Assembly: GCF_000253055.1 (NCBI RefSeq)
Contig: NC_016070.1
Coordinates: 480,001 to 512,000, forward strand
Length of the DNA: 32,000 bases
Direction: 5' to 3'
Origin: Thermoproteus tenax Kra 1
GTDB taxonomy: Archaea > Thermoproteota > Thermoprotei > Thermoproteales > Thermoproteaceae
Shown here: positions 3,993-31,840 of the stretch, one piece after another
How positions within the stretch are numbered: position 1 is the first letter of the stretch
Layout of the letters: each line of letters opens with the position of its first letter
Program-made: the position numbers and the translations under genes
The notes under the pieces: model-generated
The model's database searches: none
Seen by the model: only the letters and a program-made list of their open reading frames with translations
Told to the model about the DNA's origin: nothing

Positions 3993-5036
3993 ATGTCCGG
4001 AGTCTCCATATCGGTCCTCGCCTCTCACAGCGCGTTGGACGTGCTGGACGGCGCCAAGGACGAGGGCTTCAAGACGATCGCGGTGGCCAAAAGAGGGAGG
4101 GAGAGGGCATATAGAGAGTTCCCAGTGGTGGACGAGCTCATAGTCCTGGATGACTATAGAGACATAGTGAAGGTGATAGACAAGCTCAAGGGCTCTGTGT
4201 TTGTCCCCAACAGGTCCTTCGCAGTGTATGTGGGCTACGACGCCATAGAGAGGGATTTCCCGGTGCCCATATTTGGGAACAGATATCTGCTCCGCTGGGA
4301 GGAGAGGGCGGGACCCTACAACTACTACAGGCTGTTGGACGAGGCCGGCATAAGGAGGCCCAAGACGTTTGCGTCGCCCGACGAAGTCGACCGTCCAGTG
4401 ATGGTCAAGTTGCCCGAGGCCGAGAGGAGGGTGGAGAGGGGGTTCTTTATAGCCAGAGACAGAGACGATCTCTGGCGCAAGGCGAGGCGTTTGGCAGAGA
4501 GGGGCATTATAAGGCTCGACGACCTCTCTAGGGCCTCTATAGAGGAGCTCGTGTTAGGCGCCCACTTTAACGCCAACTACTTCTACTCGCCCTTGTTCAA
4601 GCGGCTGGAGCTCCACAGTTTCGACAGAAGGATACAGAGCAACCTCGACGGAGTCTACCGACTGCCGGCGAGAGATCAAGTCGAGCTGGACGTGGACGTG
4701 AGATACGTCGAGGTCGGCCACGAGCCGGCCACGATAAGAGAGAGCCTCTTGGAGAAGGTATTCGACATAGGCTATCGCTTCACAGAGGCGGCCGCCAGAC
4801 TCGTGAAGCCTGGGGTGATCGGGCCGTTCACGCTCCAGTTCCTGGTGACACCAGAGCTGGACTTAGTGGTCTACGATGTGGCCCCGAGGATCGGCGGAGG
4901 CACTAACGCCTACGTCGGCATTGGAGGCCAGTACTCCAAACTCTACTGGGGCAGGCCCATCTCTGTGGGCAGACGTATAGCGATAGAGATCAAGGAGGCC
5001 ATTAGGCAAAACAAACTGGAGGAGGTGACCACATGA
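3993..5036 (+). CDS. purP: 5-formaminoimidazole-4-carboxamide ribonucleotide (FAICAR) synthetase PurP, ATP-grasp
   Basis: 347 aa. The N-terminal [23 protein letters not shown] is the PurP signature, followed by an ATP-grasp-like C-half. Confidence 0.85.
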
Positions 5037-6040
5037 TCGAGCGTTTGATCAAGGGCTACGACCTCGACAAGTTGGCCGTGGCAACCATTGCCTCGCATAC
5101 AGCCCTCCACATACTTAGAGGCGCCAAGTTGTACGGCTTTAGAACTATTGCGGTCGCCAGACCCAACACGGCGTGGTTCTACAGACAGTTCCAGTTCATC
5201 GACGAGGTGTGGGAGGCCGACTTCTCCAACTTTAGGCCGGTAGCTGAGAGACTATCGAGACAGAACGCAGTCTTGGTCCCCCACGGCTCATACGTCGAGT
5301 ACGTCGGCTGGAGACAAGCGCTCGAGGCGCCCGTGCCGACTCTCGGCGTCAGGAGGCTTATAGAGATAGAGGCGGACCAGTTCAAAAAGATGGGCTTGTT
5401 GGAGAGGGCAGGTATCCCGACCCCGCGGGTGTATAACAGCGCCGACGAAGTCACAGGCCCTGTCATTGTGAAGCTCTTTGGCGCCAAGGGGGGCAGAGGC
5501 TACTTTTTCGCTAGAGACAAGAGGGAGCTCGCCGAGAGGCTGGCCAACCTGGCAGAGCCGCACATAATCCAGGAGTACGTCTTCGGCGTTCCGGCTTACT
5601 ACCACTACTTCGCCTCTCCGATGTACTCCCGCGTTGAGATCTTCGGCATGGACATACGCTATGAGACAAACGTAGACGGCAGGACCTTCGGCCTCGTCGA
5701 ACCGTCCTTCGTCGTCGTGGGCAACTTGCCCTTGGTTCTGAGGGAGTCCCTCTTGCCGACAGTGCAGAGATATGGCGAGGCATTCGCCAAGGCTGTGCGG
5801 GAGACCTTGGGCGAGGATATGAAGGGACCCTACTCCCTCGAGTCCATAATAAAGGACGATATGTCCATAGTGGTGTTTGAGTTCTCTGGGCGCATCGTGG
5901 CCGGCACCAATGTGTACATGGGCGTCGGATCGCCCTACTCAGTCCTCTATTTCGATAAGCCCATGGATATGGGGACGCGTATAGCTCACGAGTTGGACGA
6001 AGCACGCAAGAGGGGCGCGCTTGAGAGAATAGTCAGTTAG
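5033..6040 (+). CDS. PurP-family paralogue (ATP-grasp)
   Basis: 335 aa. [23 protein letters not shown] plus collinear similarity to the upstream PurP. The start overlaps the upstream stop (ATGA). Confidence 0.8.
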
Positions 6041-24790: not shown

Positions 24791-25342
24791 ATGATCGAGC
24801 GGACGTTGGTCATCGTGAAGCCGGACGGCGTTAAGAGGGGGCTTGTTGGGGAAATAATATCGCGGATAGAGCGGGCGGGACTCAAGATCGTCGCGATGAA
24901 GATGGTGAAAGCTACGCGCGAACAGATAGAGGGCTTTTATCCGAGCGACGAGGGCTGGCTTAGGAGCGTGGGCAATAAAACTCTCACAAGCTACAAGGAG
25001 ATGGGGATAGACCCAAGGGCCGAGCTCGGCACAGACGATCCAGTGGAGATCGGGAGGATCGTCAAAGGATGGCTTGTAGACTACATGACGGAGGCCCCCA
25101 TAGTCCTAATGGTGGTAGAGGGCAACCACGCAGTCAGCGTCATGAGGAAGCTCGTGGGCCACACTCTGCCGTACAAGGCGGAGCCCGGCACAATTAGGGG
25201 CGATTTCTCGGCCGACAGCCCCGATCTGGCGAACAGAGAGAGGCGGTCTATTAGGAACCTCGTGCACGCGAGCGATAGCCCTGAGGAGGCCAGAAGGGAA
25301 ATATCCTATTGGTTTAGAGATGACGAAATACTTGAATATTAA
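24791..25342 (+). CDS. ndk: nucleoside-diphosphate kinase with lineage-specific insertions
   Basis: ERTLVIVKPDGV, TIRGDF and the NLVHASDS active-site His context. At 183 aa it is longer than a canonical NDK (about 140-150 aa), because of two insertions. Confidence 0.95.
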   Translation: MIERTLVIVKPDGVKRGLVGEIISRIERAGLKIVAMKMVKATREQIEGFYPSDEGWLRSVGNKTLTSYKEMGIDPRAELGTDDPVEIGRIVKGWLVDYMTEAPIVLMVVEGNHAVSVMRKLVGHTLPYKAEPGTIRGDFSADSPDLANRERRSIRNLVHASDSPEEARREISYWFRDDEILEY

Positions 25343-25468: not shown

Positions 25469-27358
25469 ATGGAAATATGGAGACCTGAGAAAGAACACCT
25501 CTCTGAATCTAATATTGCTAGATATATATCTGATCGCGGGCTAGGCACTCTCGACGCGTTCATATCTTTTACCTACGAGAGGCCCGAGGCCTTCTGGAGC
25601 TCCTTCGTGGACGAGGTATTGAGGGTGAAGTGGTACGAAAAATACACTAAAGTGTTGGATCTAAGTAGCGGCGTCCAGTGGCCTAGGTGGTTTATCGGGG
25701 GCAAGATCAATATAGCTGACCAACTTGAGGACTCGGCAAGACCGTTAGTTAAATGGGAGGGGGAAGATGGGAGCAAGGCCGTGTGGAGCTACTCAGAGGT
25801 GCTCTATAAGGCCAGAGCGGTGGCGAGCTGGCTCAAGAGAAATGGGCTAAACAAGGGCGATAGAGTCGGCATCTTTATGCCCATGGTGCCCGAGATAGTC
25901 CCAGTCATGCTCGGCGCAATTAGAGCCGGCGGAATCATAGTGCCGCTCTTCAGCGGGTTCGGCAAAGAGGCCATCAGAGTGAGGCTTGAGGACAGCGAGG
26001 CTAAGTTCGTCTTCGCCTCAGATATATCGTACAGAAGGGGCAGGCCCATCGATATGTTGTCTGAGCTGAGGGCAGGGTTGGCCCCGTCGGTCCGCAACGT
26101 GGTGGTCCACGAGCGGGGCGGTCTCAGGGGCGACTACGTCTCCCTCGCTGAAGTCTTTAAGACCGGAGGCGACTACGTCGAGGCGGCCAGCTCCGAGGAT
26201 CCCATTATGATAATCTACACCTCCGGCACCACTGGGAAGCCCAAGGGCACAGTCCATACCCACGACGGCTTCCCTATCAAGGCCGCCGCTGACGTCTACT
26301 TCCACTTCGATTTAAGGGAGGGAGAAACGTTGAGCTGGATCACCGACATGGGCTGGATGATGGGCCCTTGGATGGTCTTCGCCGCCTACCTCCTGCGCGG
26401 CTCCATGGCCTTCTTCGAGGGCGCTCCGGACTACCCCAAGGACAGAGTCTGGCGGTTCGTCGAAGAGCACAGAGTCTCTGCGCTGGGCCTTGCAGCCACG
26501 TTGACAAGATATCTGAGGAGCATTGAGGCGGCCGCCGCGCCGGGCCAACTGGATAGCCTAAAGGCGTTTGGCAACACGGGCGAGCCCATCGACGTGGAGA
26601 GCTGGCTATGGCTCTACAGGATGGGGAGGGGGAGGATCCCCATAATAAATTATTCAGGCGGCACCGAGATCTCCGGAGGCATCCTGGGATGTTACGTCGT
26701 GAGGGAAATGAAGCCGAGTTCCTTCAACGGCATGAGCCCTGGCATAAAAGCCGCCGTGTTCACCGAAGATGGAAAGCCGGCCCCGCCTGGCACAGAGGGC
26801 GAGCTCGTAGTCCTATCTGTGTGGCCGGGCATGACGAGGGGCTTCTGGCGCGACCCCCAGAGGTACCTTGAGACCTACTGGAGCAAGTGGCCCGGCGTAT
26901 GGGCGCACGGCGATGCCGCCATGGTGGACCAAGAGGGCTTCTACTATATCCTGGGGCGCGCCGATGACACCATCAAAGTCGCCGGCAAGAGGCTGGGGCC
27001 TGCCGAGATAGAGACTGTGCTAAACGCGCATCCCGCTGTGGCAGAGTCGGCGTGTATTGGAGTGCCCCACGACATCAAGGGGGAGGTGCCGATATGCTTC
27101 GTGGTGCTCAAGCCAGGCTATGAGCCTAGCGAGGAGCTCAAGAGGGAGCTCATCAAAAGGACCGAGGAGGCGCTCGGCAAAGCCTTCGGCGCTGTGGAAG
27201 ATATTAAGTTCGTCAAATTGCTTCCGAAGACGCGCAACGCCAAGATTATGAGGAGAGTGATAAGGGCGGTGTATTTGGGGCGCAACCCCGGCGACCTTTC
27301 CGCGTTGGAGAGCCCAGAGGCTATAGAGGAGATAAAGAGAGTAGCAATAAAGAGTTGA
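25469..27358 (+). CDS. AMP-forming acyl-CoA synthetase (acetyl-/short-chain acyl-CoA synthetase family)
   Basis: 629 aa with the AMP-binding motif YTSGTTGKPKG, plus later YGxTE-like NYSGGTE and GDAAMVDQEGFYYILGRADD. Confidence 0.9.
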   Translation: MEIWRPEKEHLSESNIARYISDRGLGTLDAFISFTYERPEAFWSSFVDEVLRVKWYEKYTKVLDLSSGVQWPRWFIGGKINIADQLEDSARPLVKWEGEDGSKAVWSYSEVLYKARAVASWLKRNGLNKGDRVGIFMPMVPEIVPVMLGAIRAGGIIVPLFSGFGKEAIRVRLEDSEAKFVFASDISYRRGRPIDMLSELRAGLAPSVRNVVVHERGGLRGDYVSLAEVFKTGGDYVEAASSEDPIMIIYTSGTTGKPKGTVHTHDGFPIKAAADVYFHFDLREGETLSWITDMGWMMGPWMVFAAYLLRGSMAFFEGAPDYPKDRVWRFVEEHRVSALGLAATLTRYLRSIEAAAAPGQLDSLKAFGNTGEPIDVESWLWLYRMGRGRIPIINYSGGTEISGGILGCYVVREMKPSSFNGMSPGIKAAVFTEDGKPAPPGTEGELVVLSVWPGMTRGFWRDPQRYLETYWSKWPGVWAHGDAAMVDQEGFYYILGRADDTIKVAGKRLGPAEIETVLNAHPAVAESACIGVPHDIKGEVPICFVVLKPGYEPSEELKRELIKRTEEALGKAFGAVEDIKFVKLLPKTRNAKIMRRVIRAVYLGRNPGDLSALESPEAIEEIKRVAIKS

Positions 27359-27419
27359 GTTTTTCAAACGACACAGAGCCAACATAACTGTTAAATAATT
27401 ATAAAATTTTGACTAATTA

Positions 27420-28562
27420 ATGAGGGTAGGCATTGCAGGCGTGGGCTGGTTCGGCTTCCAGCCCGAGGTCGCCGATTATTCCTTCCGCGAAATGATGTTC
27501 AAGGCGGCGCAGAGGGCCTATCAAGACGCCGGAAACATAGATCCTAGGAGCGAGGTCGATGCGTTTATCTCATGTCAAGAGGACTTCTGGGAGGGGATCT
27601 CCATAGCAGACGAGTTCGCGCCAGATCCAGTCGGCGGCGCCATGAAGTCCGTCTATACTGTGGCCGGGGATGGGCTACAGTGCGTGGGACAAGCCTACAT
27701 GATGATCAAAACGGGGATGTTCGACGTAGTAGTAGTGGAGTCGCACGGCAAGCCGAGCGACATAGTGACAATGAACGAGGTTATGTTTATGGCCACAGAT
27801 CCTATCTCGATCAGACCGCTCATGATACCGAACGTCCATGCTCTGGCGGCCCTAGAGGCGAGGGCCTATATGTCGAAATACGGAGTAGAAGAGAGACATC
27901 TAGACGCCGTAGTGGGGAAGGCTCACAAGGCGGGCGCGAGGAACTCCAGAGCCGTCTTCGCCTCCCCCGGGAAGCTGAGGTCGGCCACTCCGACTGTCGT
28001 CGACCCGCTGAGGGAGGCCGACATAGCTGGCTTCGTGGACGCGGTCGTCGTGGTGGTCCTCGCCTCCGACAAAGTGATCAGAGACTACACGGACACGCCA
28101 GTATGGGTCGATGGAGTCTGGTGGTCGACTGAGGGCTCGACGCTGGAGCTACACGACTGGTCCTTCCCTGCGCACGCAAGAGAGGCCGCGGAGGGGGCCT
28201 ACAAACAAGCGAAAATAACGGATCCAGCCAAAGAGGTCGGCTTCGCCGAGGTGGACAATCGGTACAGCTTCAAAGAGCTTCAACACATCGAGGCGTTGAA
28301 GTTGGCGCCTGTCGGCTCCGCAAAGGACCTTCTGCTTGACGGGGCCTTCGACCCTGGGGGAAGGCTGCCAGTGAATTTAAGCGGCGGCGCTCTCGCCGAG
28401 GGGGTCCCCTTGGAGGTACACGGGCTGGCCAGGCTGAGCTACGCCGTGGGTGTAATGAGGGGGGACATAAAGGCCGAGGTGGACAAACGCGATGTCGCCG
28501 TAGTGCACAGCTGGAGGGGCGTGCCCACGACCACGAGCGTTGTCGCCGTGTTGCGGATATGA
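27420..28562 (+). CDS. thiolase-fold (SCP-x/DUF35-associated type) protein, paralogue 1, canonical catalytic residues apparently absent
   Basis: 380 aa, collinear with archaeal thiolases (DTPVWV, PVNLSGG). However, it has VAGDG where C-x-S-G is expected, DNRY where HDCF is expected, and GVPLEVHG where GHPxGATG is expected. Confidence 0.8.
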   Translation: MRVGIAGVGWFGFQPEVADYSFREMMFKAAQRAYQDAGNIDPRSEVDAFISCQEDFWEGISIADEFAPDPVGGAMKSVYTVAGDGLQCVGQAYMMIKTGMFDVVVVESHGKPSDIVTMNEVMFMATDPISIRPLMIPNVHALAALEARAYMSKYGVEERHLDAVVGKAHKAGARNSRAVFASPGKLRSATPTVVDPLREADIAGFVDAVVVVVLASDKVIRDYTDTPVWVDGVWWSTEGSTLELHDWSFPAHAREAAEGAYKQAKITDPAKEVGFAEVDNRYSFKELQHIEALKLAPVGSAKDLLLDGAFDPGGRLPVNLSGGALAEGVPLEVHGLARLSYAVGVMRGDIKAEVDKRDVAVVHSWRGVPTTTSVVAVLRI

Positions 28563-29746
28563 CCGGCCGCAACCTCAACTTCAAACACCGCGTCGCAGTC
28601 GTCGGCGCAGGTCTGACACTGTTTAGAAGGAGGCTTCAGGAGACGCCGCAAGAGATGGCGTGGCTCGCCGCAAAGCAGGCCCTCGACGAGGCAGGATTGA
28701 CTCTCAAGGACATAGACTGCGTGGTGATAGGCAGCGCTCCCGACGCTTTCGACGGCGTCCACATGAAAGGCGAGTACCTCGCCGAGGGGGCCGGGGGCAT
28801 CCACAAGCCTGTCGTGAGGGTGTATGTGGGCGGAGCCACCGGAGTGTTCGTCCCCATAGCGGCTTGGTGGCACGTGGCCTCCGGACTATGTAAAAGGGTT
28901 TTAGCCGTGGCCGAGGAAAAGATGAGCCACTCAGCGAAGCCGCATCCCCAGTATGTGTTCCGCTACATCTGGGACCCGATAGTAGAGAAGCCCCTTAACC
29001 CCAACTTGTTGTGGATATTCGCCATGGAGATGCACCGCTATATGTACAAATGCAACGTGAAAAAGGAGGACATAGCTCTAGTGTCGGTTAAAAATAAACG
29101 GAATGCGTGCGGCCATCCGTCGGCGCAACTGTGCGATCCCAACATCAAAGTGGAGGACGTGTTGAACAGCGAGGTCTTAGTCTGGCCCGTCAACAGATTA
29201 GATGTATCGCCCGTATCCGACGGGGCCGCCGCGTTGGTCCTGGCCGCTGAGGAGGAGGCCAGAAAGATCACCGATACGCCCGTCTGGGTCAAGGGAATAG
29301 GCTGGACGTTAGACACTACGCACTGGACAAATAGAGACCTCGCCTATCCGGAGTACGTCAGAAGAGCTGCCGAGATGGCATACCGCATGGCCGGCATAGA
29401 CAACCCGAGGAAACAGATAGACGTGGCTGAGCCCTACGACCCCTTCGATTACAAGGAGCTCCACCACATGGAGGGTCTGGGCCTCGCAAAGAAGTGCGAA
29501 GCGCCTCTGTTGACCAAAGAGGGCGTGACCCAGAGGGACGGCGATCTCCCAATAAATCCATCTGGCGGCCTCCTCGGAGTTGGCAACCCCATCGCGGCAG
29601 CCGGCTTGATGAAGGTGGCCGAGATATTCTGGCAAGTGAGGGGGGAGGCCGGCGCAAGGCAAGTCAAGAAGCCGGTGTACACAGGCCTCGCTCAAGCTTG
29701 GGGCGACCTAATGCAGGCAGGCACGGTGATCGTGTTGGGGGTATGA
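28559..29746 (+). CDS. thiolase-fold (SCP-x/DUF35-associated type) protein, paralogue 2, canonical catalytic residues apparently absent
   Basis: 395 aa with VKNKRNA, RLDVSPVSDGAAALVLA, DTPVWVKG and INPSGGL. However, it has VGGATG at the nucleophile site, YDPF for HDCF, and GNPIAAAG for GHPxGATG. ATGA overlaps on both sides. Confidence 0.8.
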   Translation: MTGRNLNFKHRVAVVGAGLTLFRRRLQETPQEMAWLAAKQALDEAGLTLKDIDCVVIGSAPDAFDGVHMKGEYLAEGAGGIHKPVVRVYVGGATGVFVPIAAWWHVASGLCKRVLAVAEEKMSHSAKPHPQYVFRYIWDPIVEKPLNPNLLWIFAMEMHRYMYKCNVKKEDIALVSVKNKRNACGHPSAQLCDPNIKVEDVLNSEVLVWPVNRLDVSPVSDGAAALVLAAEEEARKITDTPVWVKGIGWTLDTTHWTNRDLAYPEYVRRAAEMAYRMAGIDNPRKQIDVAEPYDPFDYKELHHMEGLGLAKKCEAPLLTKEGVTQRDGDLPINPSGGLLGVGNPIAAAGLMKVAEIFWQVRGEAGARQVKKPVYTGLAQAWGDLMQAGTVIVLGV

Positions 29747-30273
29747 GCAAGCCCAAGAACCCTAGGGGAACCGCCTACGAGGAGCTAGACTTCCCAGCGT
29801 TTGAGTTCCCTGTTGTGGGCAAGGCGCGCTACAACTACACAGCGGGGTGGGCGCTCGGCAGATTCTTGGCCGGCCTCAAGGAGGGCAAGATCTTGGGGAC
29901 TGTGTGCAAGAAGTGCGGAAGAGTCTTTGTGCCGCCGCGTATGTACTGTTCCTACTGTTTCAGAGAGGTCGACGACTGGGTCGAGGCCTCGCCCGAGGGC
30001 ACCATTGTGACTGTGGTAGCAAGCTATGTGGAGGCCACCAGAGCCAGAGCTGTGGAGCCGAAGATAGTCGGCGTGATAAAGCTCGACGTCCCCGGCTATA
30101 AGTTCGACGACCACTTCTTCCCAGGTCTGCTACACTACATCTGCGGAGCTACCGATGAGGACGTGAAAAGCATGAGGCTGTTCGGCGCCAGAGTGAGGGC
30201 TAGGTTCAAGCCTGAGCAACAAAGGACCGGCTCTATCACAGATATAGAGTGCTTCGAGGTGGTGAGGACATGA
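29743..30273 (+). CDS. DUF35 Zn-ribbon/OB-fold protein 1
   Basis: The start is ATG 29743 (MSKPKNPRG...), overlapping the thiolase stop. The track's 29494 start is an out-of-context extension. Rubredoxin-like CKKCGRVFVPPRMYCSYC is followed by an OB-fold-like region. Confidence 0.85.
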   Translation: MSKPKNPRGTAYEELDFPAFEFPVVGKARYNYTAGWALGRFLAGLKEGKILGTVCKKCGRVFVPPRMYCSYCFREVDDWVEASPEGTIVTVVASYVEATRARAVEPKIVGVIKLDVPGYKFDDHFFPGLLHYICGATDEDVKSMRLFGARVRARFKPEQQRTGSITDIECFEVVRT

Positions 30274-30701
30274 GGCGCGTAAAGACCTTCCCAGAGGTGA
30301 TGGAGATAGAGGCCTATATATACACTGCAGGCCCCGTGGGCACCAAATGGTTGGAGAACCTTAAGGCCGGCAAATTGACCGCCGCGTATTGTCCCAAGTG
30401 CGGGCGCCTCTTCTTGCCGCCCAAGATGTTCTGCCCCTACGACTTCGAGGAGGTCAGAGAGCTCAGAGAGATCGGCCAGACGGGTGTCGTCGAGAGCTAC
30501 ACAGTTATAGAGAGGGATCTCTCAGGGGAGAGGTTGCCCGAGAGGAAGATCTTGGCGTTCATAAGGTTTCCGGGCGTCGAGGGAGGAATTATACACTACG
30601 TGAAGGCAGAGGGGCTCGCCATCGGAATGAAGGTGAAGCCTAAGTGGAGGTCTGAGAGGAGGGGCTCGGTGACCGACATAGAATATTTTGAGCCCGTATG
30701 A
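30270..30701 (+). CDS. DUF35 Zn-ribbon/OB-fold protein 2
   Basis: The start is ATG 30270 (MRRVKTF...), overlapping the upstream stop. In CPKCGRLFLPPKMFCPYD the fourth ligand position is Asp, not Cys. OB-fold-like C-half. Confidence 0.85.
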   Translation: MRRVKTFPEVMEIEAYIYTAGPVGTKWLENLKAGKLTAAYCPKCGRLFLPPKMFCPYDFEEVRELREIGQTGVVESYTVIERDLSGERLPERKILAFIRFPGVEGGIIHYVKAEGLAIGMKVKPKWRSERRGSVTDIEYFEPV

Positions 30702-31840
30702 GCCTCTTGACCCAAGAGCACGAGCTCGTCAGAAAGACTGCGCGCGATTTTGCCGAGAAGTACGTTGGGCCTATAGCGAGGAGGATGGACAGAGAGAACT
30801 ACTATCCCCGGGATATATTACGGGACGCCGGAAAGCTCGGCATATTGACCCCGACGGTTCCCCCAGAGTATGGCGGAGGAGGCGGCGATCTGAGGTCCGT
30901 CGTTGTTATACTTGAGGAGTTAGGCAGAGTGAGCGGCGGCTTCAGCCTCCTAGTGGAGGCCTACGGCGTGCTTTTCGCGGACGCTCTGAAGAACTTCGGA
31001 AGCGCTGGGCAGAAGGAGGAGGTGCTGCCCAAGGTCGCCGCCGGCGAGAAGATCGGCGCCTTCGCTCTCTCCGAGCCGTGTTGCGGCAGCGATGCGGCGG
31101 CTATACAGACGAGGGCCGAGAGGAGGGGCGGAGAGTGGGTCATTAACGGCGCAAAGATGTGGATAACCAACGGGCTCTACGCCGACTACTACCTTGTGGC
31201 CGCTAGGACTGGCCCAAGGGAGGCGCGGCACAAGGCCATAACGGTCTTCCTCTTGAGGAGGAGCTCTTGTGTGGAGGCCTCGCCTATTGAGGTCATGGGC
31301 GTCAGAGGCACGGGGACTGCGGAGCTCAAGTTCAACGACTGCTCTGTGGGCGAGGACGAGATAGTGGGCGAGTTGAATGGAGGGTGGAGGGTCCTCATGC
31401 ACACGCTCGATGTGGGCAGAGTTGCCATATCGGGAGTTGCGCTGGGGATAGCGAGGGGGGCCTTCGAGGAGGCGCTGGCCTGGGCGAGGAGCAGAGAGCT
31501 CTTCGGCAAGAGGCTCGTTGAGTTCCAAAACGCCCAGTTCGAGTTGGCGGAGATGTTGGCCTCCATAGAGACGGCGCGCGCTCTCACGTACTATGCGGCT
31601 TATCTCTACGATGTAGGCTCGCCCGAGTTCCTTCTGATGTCCCACGTGGCCAAACTACAGGCCGCCAGGCTCGCTGTAGATGTAACGCGCAGAGCGGTGC
31701 AGATGGAGGGAGGATACGGATACAGCAAGGAGAGCAAGGCTGAGATGTTCTATAGAGATGCCAAGATCTTGGAGATAGGGGAGGGTACTAATGAGGTCAT
31801 GAAGTACGTCATCTATAAACTGCTCGAGAAGAGCTCTTAG
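30698..31840 (+). CDS. acyl-CoA dehydrogenase (FAD)
   Basis: 380 aa with GAFALSEPCCGSDA, WITNG and the catalytic-base context ILEIGEGTNEV. Confidence 0.95.
   Translation: MSLLTQEHELVRKTARDFAEKYVGPIARRMDRENYYPRDILRDAGKLGILTPTVPPEYGGGGGDLRSVVVILEELGRVSGGFSLLVEAYGVLFADALKNFGSAGQKEEVLPKVAAGEKIGAFALSEPCCGSDAAAIQTRAERRGGEWVINGAKMWITNGLYADYYLVAARTGPREARHKAITVFLLRRSSCVEASPIEVMGVRGTGTAELKFNDCSVGEDEIVGELNGGWRVLMHTLDVGRVAISGVALGIARGAFEEALAWARSRELFGKRLVEFQNAQFELAEMLASIETARALTYYAAYLYDVGSPEFLLMSHVAKLQAARLAVDVTRRAVQMEGGYGYSKESKAEMFYRDAKILEIGEGTNEVMKYVIYKLLEKSS

Follow-up and report, generated by a model that had tools for sequence, protein, structure and literature searches.

Can a pair of thiolase-fold proteins still act as an enzyme once every residue of thiolase catalysis has gone, and if so, on what? 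The question is raised by a 32,000-nucleotide stretch of the Thermoproteus tenax Kra 1 genome (contig NC_016070.1, positions 480,001 to 512,000 of the forward strand; hereafter the window, in whose numbering all positions are given). Two adjacent + strand genes in it encode Cys-less thiolase-fold proteins, T1 (380 residues, 27420–28562) and T2 (395 residues, 28559–29746), and are followed on the same strand by genes for two DUF35 proteins, D1 (176 residues, 29743–30273) and D2 (143 residues, 30270–30701), both starting with ATG. An earlier sequence-only reading of the window, made by eye, had proposed that these four genes encode either an aldolase-like enzyme or a non-catalytic scaffold pair. 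Our analysis makes it very probable that the module encodes a real four-subunit, non-thiolytic complex. That this complex is a heteromeric thiolase-fold/DUF35 retro-aldolase acting on short 3-hydroxyacyl-coenzyme A (CoA) esters, with T2 catalytic, T1 an obligate partner, and a neighbouring acyl-CoA synthetase and acyl-CoA dehydrogenase (ACAD) supplying substrate, has in our estimate an even chance of being correct. Gene order, the loss of every thiolase catalytic residue, conservation, and the match in position to the base of Ltp2 and Sal are shown; from these we infer that a complex forms, that its chemistry is of the aldolase kind, what individual residues do and which class of substrate is used.

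Loss of Thiolase Catalytic Residues in T1 and T2

T1 and T2 both match Pfam Thiolase_C_1 (2e-19 and 4e-33, respectively), and Foldseek comparison of their AlphaFold2 models (predicted local distance difference test, pLDDT, 87 for T1 and 72 for T2) with DUF35-associated/SCP2 thiolases gave template modelling (TM) scores of 0.8–0.9, confirming the fold type that had been assigned to them from sequence. The models were used at fold level only. To locate the catalytic positions, we relied on sequence and profile comparisons: phmmer against the solved structures 7YVY (P. furiosus), 6ESQ (M. thermolithotrophicus), 6HSJ (zebrafish SCP2-thiolase) and 6OK1 (Ltp2), a PDB search with a T2-family profile, hhalign of the T1 against the T2 family profile (probability 100% over 379 columns), and alignment of a T2-family hidden Markov model (HMM) with Thermomonospora curvata Ltp2.

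The four alignments agree in placing non-catalytic residues at each thiolase catalytic position, in T1 and T2 alike. The nucleophilic Cys of the C-x-S-G motif, which closes N-beta-3, is replaced by Ala82 in T1 (V81-A82-G83-D84-G85) and by Gly92 in T2 (G91-G92-A-T-G). At the HDCF motif, the His position is occupied by Asp279 in T1 (D279-N-R-Y) and Tyr293 in T2 (Y293-D-P-F), and that of the acid/base Cys by Arg281 and Pro295; the His of the GHP motif (G-H-P-x-G-A-T-G) corresponds to Val329 in T1 (G328-V-P-L-E-V-H-G) and Asn343 in T2 (G342-N343-P-I-A-A-A-G). The loss of catalytic residues first noted by eye is therefore reproduced, and in profile alignment against thiolases and Ltp2 neither paralogue appears to carry a Cys/His/Cys or Cys/His/Asn set.

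The loss also holds family-wide, as judged by residue counts over 70–80 orthologues drawn from genome loci. Among T2 orthologues, Gly92 (71/71), Pro295 (71/71) and Asn343 (68/68) are invariant, and position 293 is Tyr in 67 of 71 and His in the other four. At position 82, T1 orthologues have Ala, Thr, Ser or Pro, and none of the 80 archaeal sequences has Cys; Asp or Glu occupies position 279, and position 329 is variable. Because both paralogues lack every thiolase catalytic residue, ordinary thiolysis by T1 or T2 is, on these alignments, excluded. The four T2 orthologues with His293 (EPHDPFDY) come from Acidilobaceae (loci L027, L044 and L051) and Stygiolobus (L068), and retain Gly92, Pro295 and Asn343.

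T2 as the Likely Catalytic Subunit

T2 scores 779 bits against the NCBIfam equivalog NF004721/PRK06065, above its cut-off of 455. The T2-family HMM aligns Gly91-Gly92 with the Gly-Gly of Ltp2, and Tyr293 with Ltp2 Tyr294 in the motif YDxF; Tyr302 of Sal occupies the same position (PMC12329534). In Ltp2 and Sal, this Tyr is the catalytic base of the retro-aldol reaction, and the backbone of the Gly at the former nucleophile position touches the substrate hydroxyl (PMC12329534). This Gly92/Tyr293 signature favours, for T2, the aldolase half of the sequence-only proposal.

T2 is also the most conserved protein of the module, with a median identity to the window protein of 76% (range 67–95), compared with 53% for D1, 49% for T1 and 41% for D2; it is 92% identical to a Pyrobaculum protein, and T1 is 85% identical to a protein from a Thermoproteus metagenome-assembled genome (MAG). 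Three T2 segments are invariant or nearly so across orders: 291-EPYDPFDYKELHH-303, 338-LLGVGNPIA-346 and the loop W381-G-D-L-M-Q386. A pseudo-enzyme status of T2 is disfavoured because conservation is concentrated in these former active-site loops. These data bear on the second half of the earlier proposal, according to which T1 and T2 would be a non-catalytic pair that binds, carries or sequesters acyl-CoAs, or that scaffolds or regulates other enzymes, such as the ACAD or the synthetase. The disappearance of all canonical catalytic residues fits such a role, as does the name 'lipid-transfer protein' that NCBI gives to related families, and DUF35 proteins are established scaffolds, with one, Trf, even being RNA-related (PMC6996347). 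Against it, no neighbouring enzyme is as conserved as T2, whose invariance is centred on the former active-site loops and whose Tyr/Gly signature is shared with proven aldolases. Pseudo-enzymes usually relax in exactly such loops. A pure scaffold thus fits poorly with the 76% median identity of T2, and we regard a non-catalytic pair as quite unlikely.

T1: Degenerate Partner or Re-Invented Site?

The earlier reading treated the two paralogues alike; they are in fact very different, T1 having a set of invariant charged residues of its own. T1 scores 568 bits against the NCBIfam equivalog NF004722/PRK06066 (cut-off 516), and its invariant set comprises Q53-E-D-x-W-E-G59, E65, F66, D84, E107, H109, K111, S113, R281, E332 and R366. 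D84 lies two residues past the former nucleophile, and E107, H109, K111 and S113 occupy the segment that corresponds to VEKMS in thiolases. The loop carrying Q53–G59 and E65-F66 is disordered in the AlphaFold2 model of the monomer (pLDDT <50 at 57–74). The most conserved T1 motif (T1 53–73, QEDFWEG...DEFAP, encoded at window positions 27576–27638) thus lies in the sole long loop that AlphaFold2 leaves disordered, and its paralogous counterpart in T2, the invariant loop D62-x-F-D-G ... E72-Y73, is likewise modelled at low confidence. Both loops probably become ordered only within the complex.

The invariant residues of T1 may serve as contact surfaces for T2, D1 or D2, or may mark a second, re-invented active site. 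In the latter case, D84, E107, H109, K111, R281, E332 and R366 would provide, for example, a hydratase, a decarboxylase or a second lyase, and the module would carry out consecutive steps on a CoA-bound intermediate. The location of the T1 invariants agrees with this, as they fall in the nucleophile, VEKMS, HDCF, GHP and C-terminal loops that line the thiolase active site, and most of them are retained in distant T1-like proteins of 33–38% identity. A hydratase gene, moreover, is missing from most archaeal operons, which leaves one step over. On the other hand, T1 evolves much faster than T2 (median identity 49% versus 76%); H109, R281 and E332 are not all present in bacterial relatives, and Ltp4-like proteins lack several of the invariants; and the charged residues could equally serve the interfaces with T2, D1 or D2, motif 53–73 being disordered in the monomer model. 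We also know of no thiolase-fold hydratase. A precedent for consecutive steps is the M. thermolithotrophicus thiolase complex, for which, according to two papers that cite the work, a CoA site shared through DUF35 is established (PMC12329534; bioRxiv 10.1101/2024.07.05.601840). Overall, an arrangement in which a T2 Tyr/Asn aldolase and T1 as a second catalyst are stapled together by the DUF35 proteins and pass a CoA-bound short-chain intermediate between them, with the bacterial Ltp3/Ltp4-like relatives operating likewise, is possible but doubtful.

The DUF35 Proteins

D1 and D2 each match both DUF35 Pfam domains above cut-off, a rubredoxin-like zinc ribbon followed by an OB fold (zf-ChsH2 and OB_ChsH2_C; 4e-13 and 6e-10 in D1). 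Both also match the DUF35 structure PDB 3IRB, D1 at 8e-17 and D2 at 6e-24. The ribbon motifs read from the sequence, CxxC...CxxC in D1 and CxxC...CxxD in D2, are confirmed. D1 has a full Cys4 ribbon (C55, C58, C69, C72), which is conserved in 62/62 orthologues. The ribbon of T. tenax D2 is degenerate (C41, C44, C55, D58), and its state varies with lineage: Thermoproteaceae have Cys3-Asp, some Sulfolobales and Desulfurococcales a complete Cys4, and many Acidilobales no more than two Cys. Because the ribbon ligands decay across lineages in this way, zinc binding seems to be dispensable for D2.

In the OB domain of D1, four residues (H131, C134, D167 and C170) are invariant in all 62 archaeal orthologues, and none of them is present in D2. 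This invariance, together with the observation that a DUF35 domain shapes the substrate cleft of Sal (PMC12329534), could be taken to mean that the module is a split-site thiolase, the D1 OB domain giving a nucleophile in trans to the Cys-less subunits. The non-crenarchaeal modules closest to that of T. tenax (T2 56–60% identical) have Gly or Leu and Tyr at the two D1 Cys positions, however, and in proteins of hyperthermophiles it would be simpler to see these residues as a second metal site or as a disulfide that adds stability. We consider a split-site thiolase highly improbable. C134 and C170 were rejected as unlikely candidates for a nucleophile and, because the nearest non-crenarchaeal modules lack both Cys, are better read as a lineage-specific disulfide or metal site.

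With 29% identity between T1 and T2 and 36% between D1 and D2, the module looks like the product of an old duplication of one thiolase/DUF35 pair.

Proposed Mechanism

We propose a core in which T1 and T2 pair as a heterodimer flanked on either side by a DUF35 protein, which would resemble the alpha-beta-beta-alpha assemblies of Ltp2-DUF35 and Sal-DUF35. T2 would bind a short 3-hydroxyacyl-CoA, with residue 293 (Tyr, rarely His) acting as the general base that deprotonates the 3-hydroxyl and the Gly91-Gly92 backbone holding that hydroxyl; Asn343 and the loop 381-WGD-383 may stabilise or protonate the acyl-CoA enolate. Retro-aldol cleavage of the C2–C3 bond would then yield an aldehyde or ketone and acetyl- or propionyl-CoA, and the reverse reaction would also be possible. 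T1, having lost its thiolase chemistry, would be an obligate partner. The neighbouring acyl-CoA synthetase and ACAD would feed a short-chain acid into the T2 step, and a hydratase, if required, would be encoded elsewhere.

Several points weigh against this proposal. T2 lacks the acid residues of the known aldolases, Ltp2 Tyr344 corresponding to Asn343 and Sal Cys304 (YDCY) to Pro295, and the His at position 293 of four T2 orthologues indicates that a mechanism specific to Tyr would not hold throughout the family. In the T2 model, pLDDT falls below 50 at 61–81, 123–149, 205–219 and 336–343, regions that include the active-site loops, because the alignment behind it was shallow (74% identity or more). 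The invariant charged residues of T1 lie in its would-be active-site cavity and are a poor fit to a passive partner. A hydratase or aldehyde dehydrogenase gene is adjacent to the module in very few archaeal loci, the formation of a heteromer is read from the genes alone, and we found no experiment on any member of the archaeal T1/T2 families. Candidates for the missing acid or oxyanion role in T2, as far as alignments indicate, are Tyr298, His302, Asp383 and Asn343.

The absence of the known acid residues also suits a different chemistry, such as decarboxylation of a CoA ester of the malonyl or 3-ketoacid type, isomerisation, or acyl transfer through a nucleophile other than Cys, which we rate as unlikely. 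T2 shares with Cys-His-Asn condensing enzymes an Asn at the second His position, but decarboxylating chain-length factors have Gln, not Gly, at the nucleophile position, and no carboxylase genes were present among the neighbourhoods that we annotated. The Cys-less SCP2-thiolase-like protein TbSLP of T. brucei, which has the motif YDCF, slowly decarboxylates malonyl-CoA, although the authors of the Sal study argue that it is really an aldolase (PMC12329534).

Distribution across Thermoproteota

A survey by a motif-seeded scan for T1, with one genome per species, returned 98 relatives, from which 80 loci were kept. All relatives are labelled Thermoproteota (Thermoproteales, Sulfolobales, Desulfurococcales and Acidilobales), save for one MAG labelled Methanobacteriota. 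Of the 64 loci with enough downstream sequence, which come from four orders, 58 retain the order T1-T2-D1-D2, and the junctions in the module loci examined are tight or overlapping; exceptions are chiefly from Vulcanisaeta, where the DUF35 genes are located elsewhere. The sequence-only reading had suggested surveying the pair in Thermoproteales. The module turns out to be neither rare nor specific to that order, but a Thermoproteota-wide operon with NCBIfam equivalogs and with Cys-less counterparts in bacteria. The NCBIfam models PRK06066 and PRK06065 have already been curated, both without a functional name; the component families are thus catalogued but functionally unnamed, and they are widely mis-annotated as acetyl-CoA acetyltransferase.

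In S. solfataricus, the module corresponds to SSO2061–2064, with SSO2061 (AAK42245) in a T1-like cluster. SSO2064 (AAK42248) is the DUF35 protein of crystal structure 3IRB (PMC2954200), and the 3IRB sequence is 88% identical to the protein in the D2 slot of a Saccharolobus locus. Given this identity and the 6e-24 match of T. tenax D2, the first DUF35 crystal structure is, by sequence comparison, that of the D2 subunit of the archaeal module.

The Cys-less module of Pyrobaculum oguniense is directly preceded by genes (L005:2171-4719) for a thiolase of ordinary appearance that shares 35% identity with T2, for a DUF35 protein and for an ACAD. Since they are adjacent there, ordinary thiolase/DUF35 systems and Cys-less systems coexist.

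Relatives outside Crenarchaeota

T2 was also the query of an exhaustive HMMER search of 1.8 billion cluster representatives, which yielded 465 matches at E <= 1e-30. Among the 110 full-length proteins in the best 150 of these matches, 27 carry the T2 signature (Gly/Tyr/Asn), 33 are T1-like (defined by x-D-G and G-K-x-S) and 17 have the canonical Cys/His/His. Because Cys-less forms outnumber canonical thiolases in this set, many archaeal and bacterial genes named 'acetyl-CoA acetyltransferase' are probably misnamed.

Gene neighbourhoods of these relatives repeat the pairing. One locus (L089) encodes, in order, a T1-like protein, a T2-like protein 60% identical to T2, and two DUF35 proteins, with a crotonase nearby. 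In a bacterial locus (L088:1479-4780), a T1-like gene is followed by a natural 731-residue T2-DUF35-DUF35 fusion, 56% identical to T2, and this fusion beside a T1-like gene argues for one physical complex. The T1-like protein of this locus departs from all 80 archaeal T1 proteins in carrying Cys where the nucleophile formerly was; its contig also carries a penicillin-binding protein gene, and the cluster has 27 members. A metagenomic locus (L091:3075-10507) encodes a MaoC hydratase, a T1-like protein, a T2-like protein and a DUF35 protein; on the opposite strand there is a further thiolase-like pair, accompanied by a separate DUF35 protein and followed by an ACAD. The two copies of the pair are divergent; close by are a BKACE-family gene and one for a PaaK-like ligase.

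A Streptomyces plasmid (L087) encodes an acyl-CoA synthetase, a crotonase, a 313-residue double DUF35 protein, a 350-residue PRK07937 'lipid-transfer protein' and a 388-residue PRK08313 protein that carries the T2 signature. PRK08313 and PRK06065 are mutually nearest, each being the second-best family for the other's member (T2 and the Streptomyces PRK08313 protein). T2 scores 289 bits against PRK08313 (cut-off 514) and T1 108 bits against PRK07937 (cut-off 419), both below cut-off. Judged by names and sizes, PRK08313 and PRK07937 may be the families of M. tuberculosis Ltp3 and Ltp4, and the plasmid locus presumably resembles M. tuberculosis Rv3521-ltp4-ltp3 in gene order, sizes and names. The hydratase and ACAD neighbours of these related Cys-less pairs, in the metagenomic and Streptomyces loci, were counted in favour of the aldolase proposal.

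A further non-canonical archaeal thiolase-fold protein, distinct from both T1 and T2, is the 'thiolase-like protein' of PDB 4YZO (S. tokodaii ST0096), in which Ser replaces the nucleophile and Met the Cys of HDCF, both His residues being retained.

Gene Layout and Neighbourhood Hints to the Substrate

The four genes were correctly described from the sequence as chained by ATGA overlaps at 28559, 29743 and 30270, and residue numbering was also correct. A fourth ATGA at 30698 adds to the chain a short-chain-type ACAD (380 residues, 30698–31840, + strand; Pfam Acyl-CoA_dh_N/M/1), so that ATGA overlaps form all four junctions of a T1-T2-D1-D2-ACAD unit of five genes rather than four. The overlaps had been taken to argue for stoichiometric co-translation. 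Four-base overlaps are frequent in this genome, however, with five other co-directional pairs within the window, and they therefore denote operon membership and no special stoichiometric device.

Upstream, an AMP-forming acyl-CoA synthetase (629 residues, 25469–27358, + strand; Pfam ACAS_N, AMP-binding and AMP-binding_C) is separated from T1 by an AT-rich spacer of 61 bases. Sequence reading identified in this spacer an AT-rich TATA-like box, ttaaataattataaaa (27392–27406, + strand), 14–28 bases 5' of the T1 ATG; by analogy with the usual archaeal promoter layout, it is a putative promoter for a leaderless or near-leaderless operon transcript. The synthetase is probably on a separate transcript in T. 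tenax. It is of the acetate/propionate/acetoacetate-CoA ligase type, its best NCBIfam matches being under cut-off (acetate-CoA ligase, 469 bits versus 657). The best NCBIfam match of the ACAD is the acryloyl-CoA reductase AcrC, likewise under cut-off (324 bits versus 640), and an ACAD is found at the same position in Pyrobaculum and Thermoproteus loci. Of the 80 loci surveyed, 31 have an ACS-like gene no more than 6 kb from the module, in three different arrangements, and 18 have an ACAD within that distance.

Other neighbours are more local. In P. aerophilum (L084:1-5221), genes for an aldehyde dehydrogenase, a crotonase and a Mo-hydroxylase with its FAD/Fe-S subunit lie on the opposite strand, 5' of the synthetase; the set fits an aldehyde-producing pathway and adjoins the module there only. 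Methylcitrate-cycle and ETF genes are near the module only in Sulfurisphaera, and a short-chain fatty-acid transporter adjoins it only in Aeropyrum-like loci. Together with the types of synthetase and ACAD, these neighbours hint at short substrates, but no particular substrate is claimed because none of the hints is general.

The remaining genes upstream in the window, for complex I subunits, NDK, an ABC transporter and a PurP-like pair, are unrelated to the module. The NDK protein (183 residues, 24791–25342) is covered by the Pfam NDK model in two separate pieces, a pattern suggestive of an insertion within the normal fold, and an NDK gene is also near the module in Aeropyrum camini (L083). 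The PurP-like pair (3993–6040) consists of tandem DUF1246 + DUF1297 paralogues of the ATP-grasp type, with a four-base overlap between them.

Implications

To our knowledge, thiolase-fold aldolases are known from only two bacterial steroid enzymes, Ltp2 and Sal, with Ltp3-Ltp4 as a third case inferred by genetics. The loss of the catalytic Cys and the gain of a Tyr base are now also seen in a strongly conserved four-subunit system of hyperthermophilic archaea that do not degrade steroids, which points to a general, short-chain version of thiolase-fold aldolase chemistry. The probable misnaming of Cys-less proteins would affect metabolic reconstructions, including the counts of thiolase/DUF35 pairs behind the inference of archaeal fatty-acid synthesis. 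If T1 and T2 did prove to be a machine with two active sites, it would represent an unrecognised core route by which Crenarchaeota metabolise the carbon of short-chain acids or amino acids. The module is readily testable, given its thermostable proteins, the genetically tractable Sulfolobales and the D2 structure 3IRB.

Comparison with Known Systems

The archaeal thiolase/HMG-CoA synthase/DUF35 complex (6ET9/6ESQ) is the best structural match of the T1 model (TM 0.87–0.90); it is operon-encoded like the module, and its DUF35 protein staples two thiolase-fold subunits together. Unlike T1 and T2, thiolases of this type are active enzymes with Cys/His/His intact; they are paired with an HMG-CoA synthase, or with a reductase and a dehydratase, instead of a second Cys-less paralogue, and there is one DUF35 protein. 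No HMG_CoA_synt domain was found by Pfam in the T1–D2 module, and T1 and T2 score 93 and 200 bits against the acetyl-CoA acetyltransferase family NF053570 (cut-off 600). Seven ketothiolase/DUF35 pairs have been reported in S. acidocaldarius (bioRxiv 10.1101/2024.07.05.601840). The pair Saci_1121/1120 was considered as a counterpart of the module and rejected, being an active thiolase with a single DUF35 protein.

The acyltransferases PhlABC/MucABC and the benzoylsuccinyl-CoA thiolase BbsAB are likewise hetero-oligomers of DUF35 and SCP2-type thiolase-fold proteins (Foldseek TM about 0.8), but PhlC and BbsB use a catalytic Cys, and PhlA is FabH/HMGCS-like rather than an SCP2-type paralogue; T1 and T2 score 43 and 119 bits against the BbsB equivalog (cut-off 750). 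SSO2064, although a D2 orthologue, differs from T. tenax D2 in its full Cys4 ribbon and was solved alone, as a homodimer; the thiolase-like partners were not studied in that work, and their missing catalytic residues were not remarked on (PMC2954200). Literature searches found no study of the archaeal module, so that the earlier view of it as uncharacterised in archaea stands; a heteromeric aldol-lyase of this kind has already been proposed for Ltp3-Ltp4 (PMC6678751).

The closest functional parallels are the thiolase-fold steroid side-chain retro-aldolases Ltp2-ChsH2(DUF35) of Thermomonospora curvata (6OK1) and Sal-Shy(DUF35) of Comamonas testosteroni (9MYR). They resemble the module in fold (Foldseek TM 0.75–0.83; phmmer 5e-20 for T2 and 7e-15 for T1), and share with T2 the Gly in place of the nucleophilic Cys and the Tyr in YDxF/Y, neither of which is found in T1 (Ala/Thr/Ser/Pro and Asp/Glu, respectively). 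Their DUF35 partner is obligate; for the archaeal module, a DUF35 partnership is indicated by gene synteny and by the fusion. Ltp2 and Sal are homodimers whose DUF35 is fused to a MaoC hydratase, whereas the module has two diverged paralogues and two free-standing DUF35 proteins. Identity is only 21–24%, the archaea lack a steroid context, and the neighbouring genes suggest short-chain substrates.

Ltp3-Ltp4 is described, from genetic evidence, as a heteromeric aldol-lyase that releases acetyl-/propionyl-CoA from C24-branched sterol side chains (PMC6678751; PMC10832528); our searches found no biochemistry or structure for it. The Ltp3-Ltp4-like Streptomyces locus agrees with the module in its adjacent Cys-less paralogues with DUF35, one with the T2 Gly/Tyr/Asn signature and the other T1-like (x-D-G/G-K-x-S), and in its adjacent acyl-CoA synthetase, beside which it also has a crotonase. 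It differs in that its DUF35 modules are fused (313 residues) and located before the thiolase-like genes, and in that its T1-like partner is about 30 residues shorter than T1 and lacks several T1-specific invariant residues. The steroid-catabolic gene context of the Ltp3-Ltp4 type is absent around the T. tenax module, which has complex I genes, NDK, the synthetase and the ACAD instead. With the Ltp2/Sal acid residues replaced in T2, and with family scores below the PRK08313 and PRK07937 cut-offs, the module is, at the level of sequence, not a member of either the Ltp2/Sal or the Ltp3-Ltp4 family. By analogy, it probably works like Ltp2 and Sal, and probably also like Ltp3-Ltp4.

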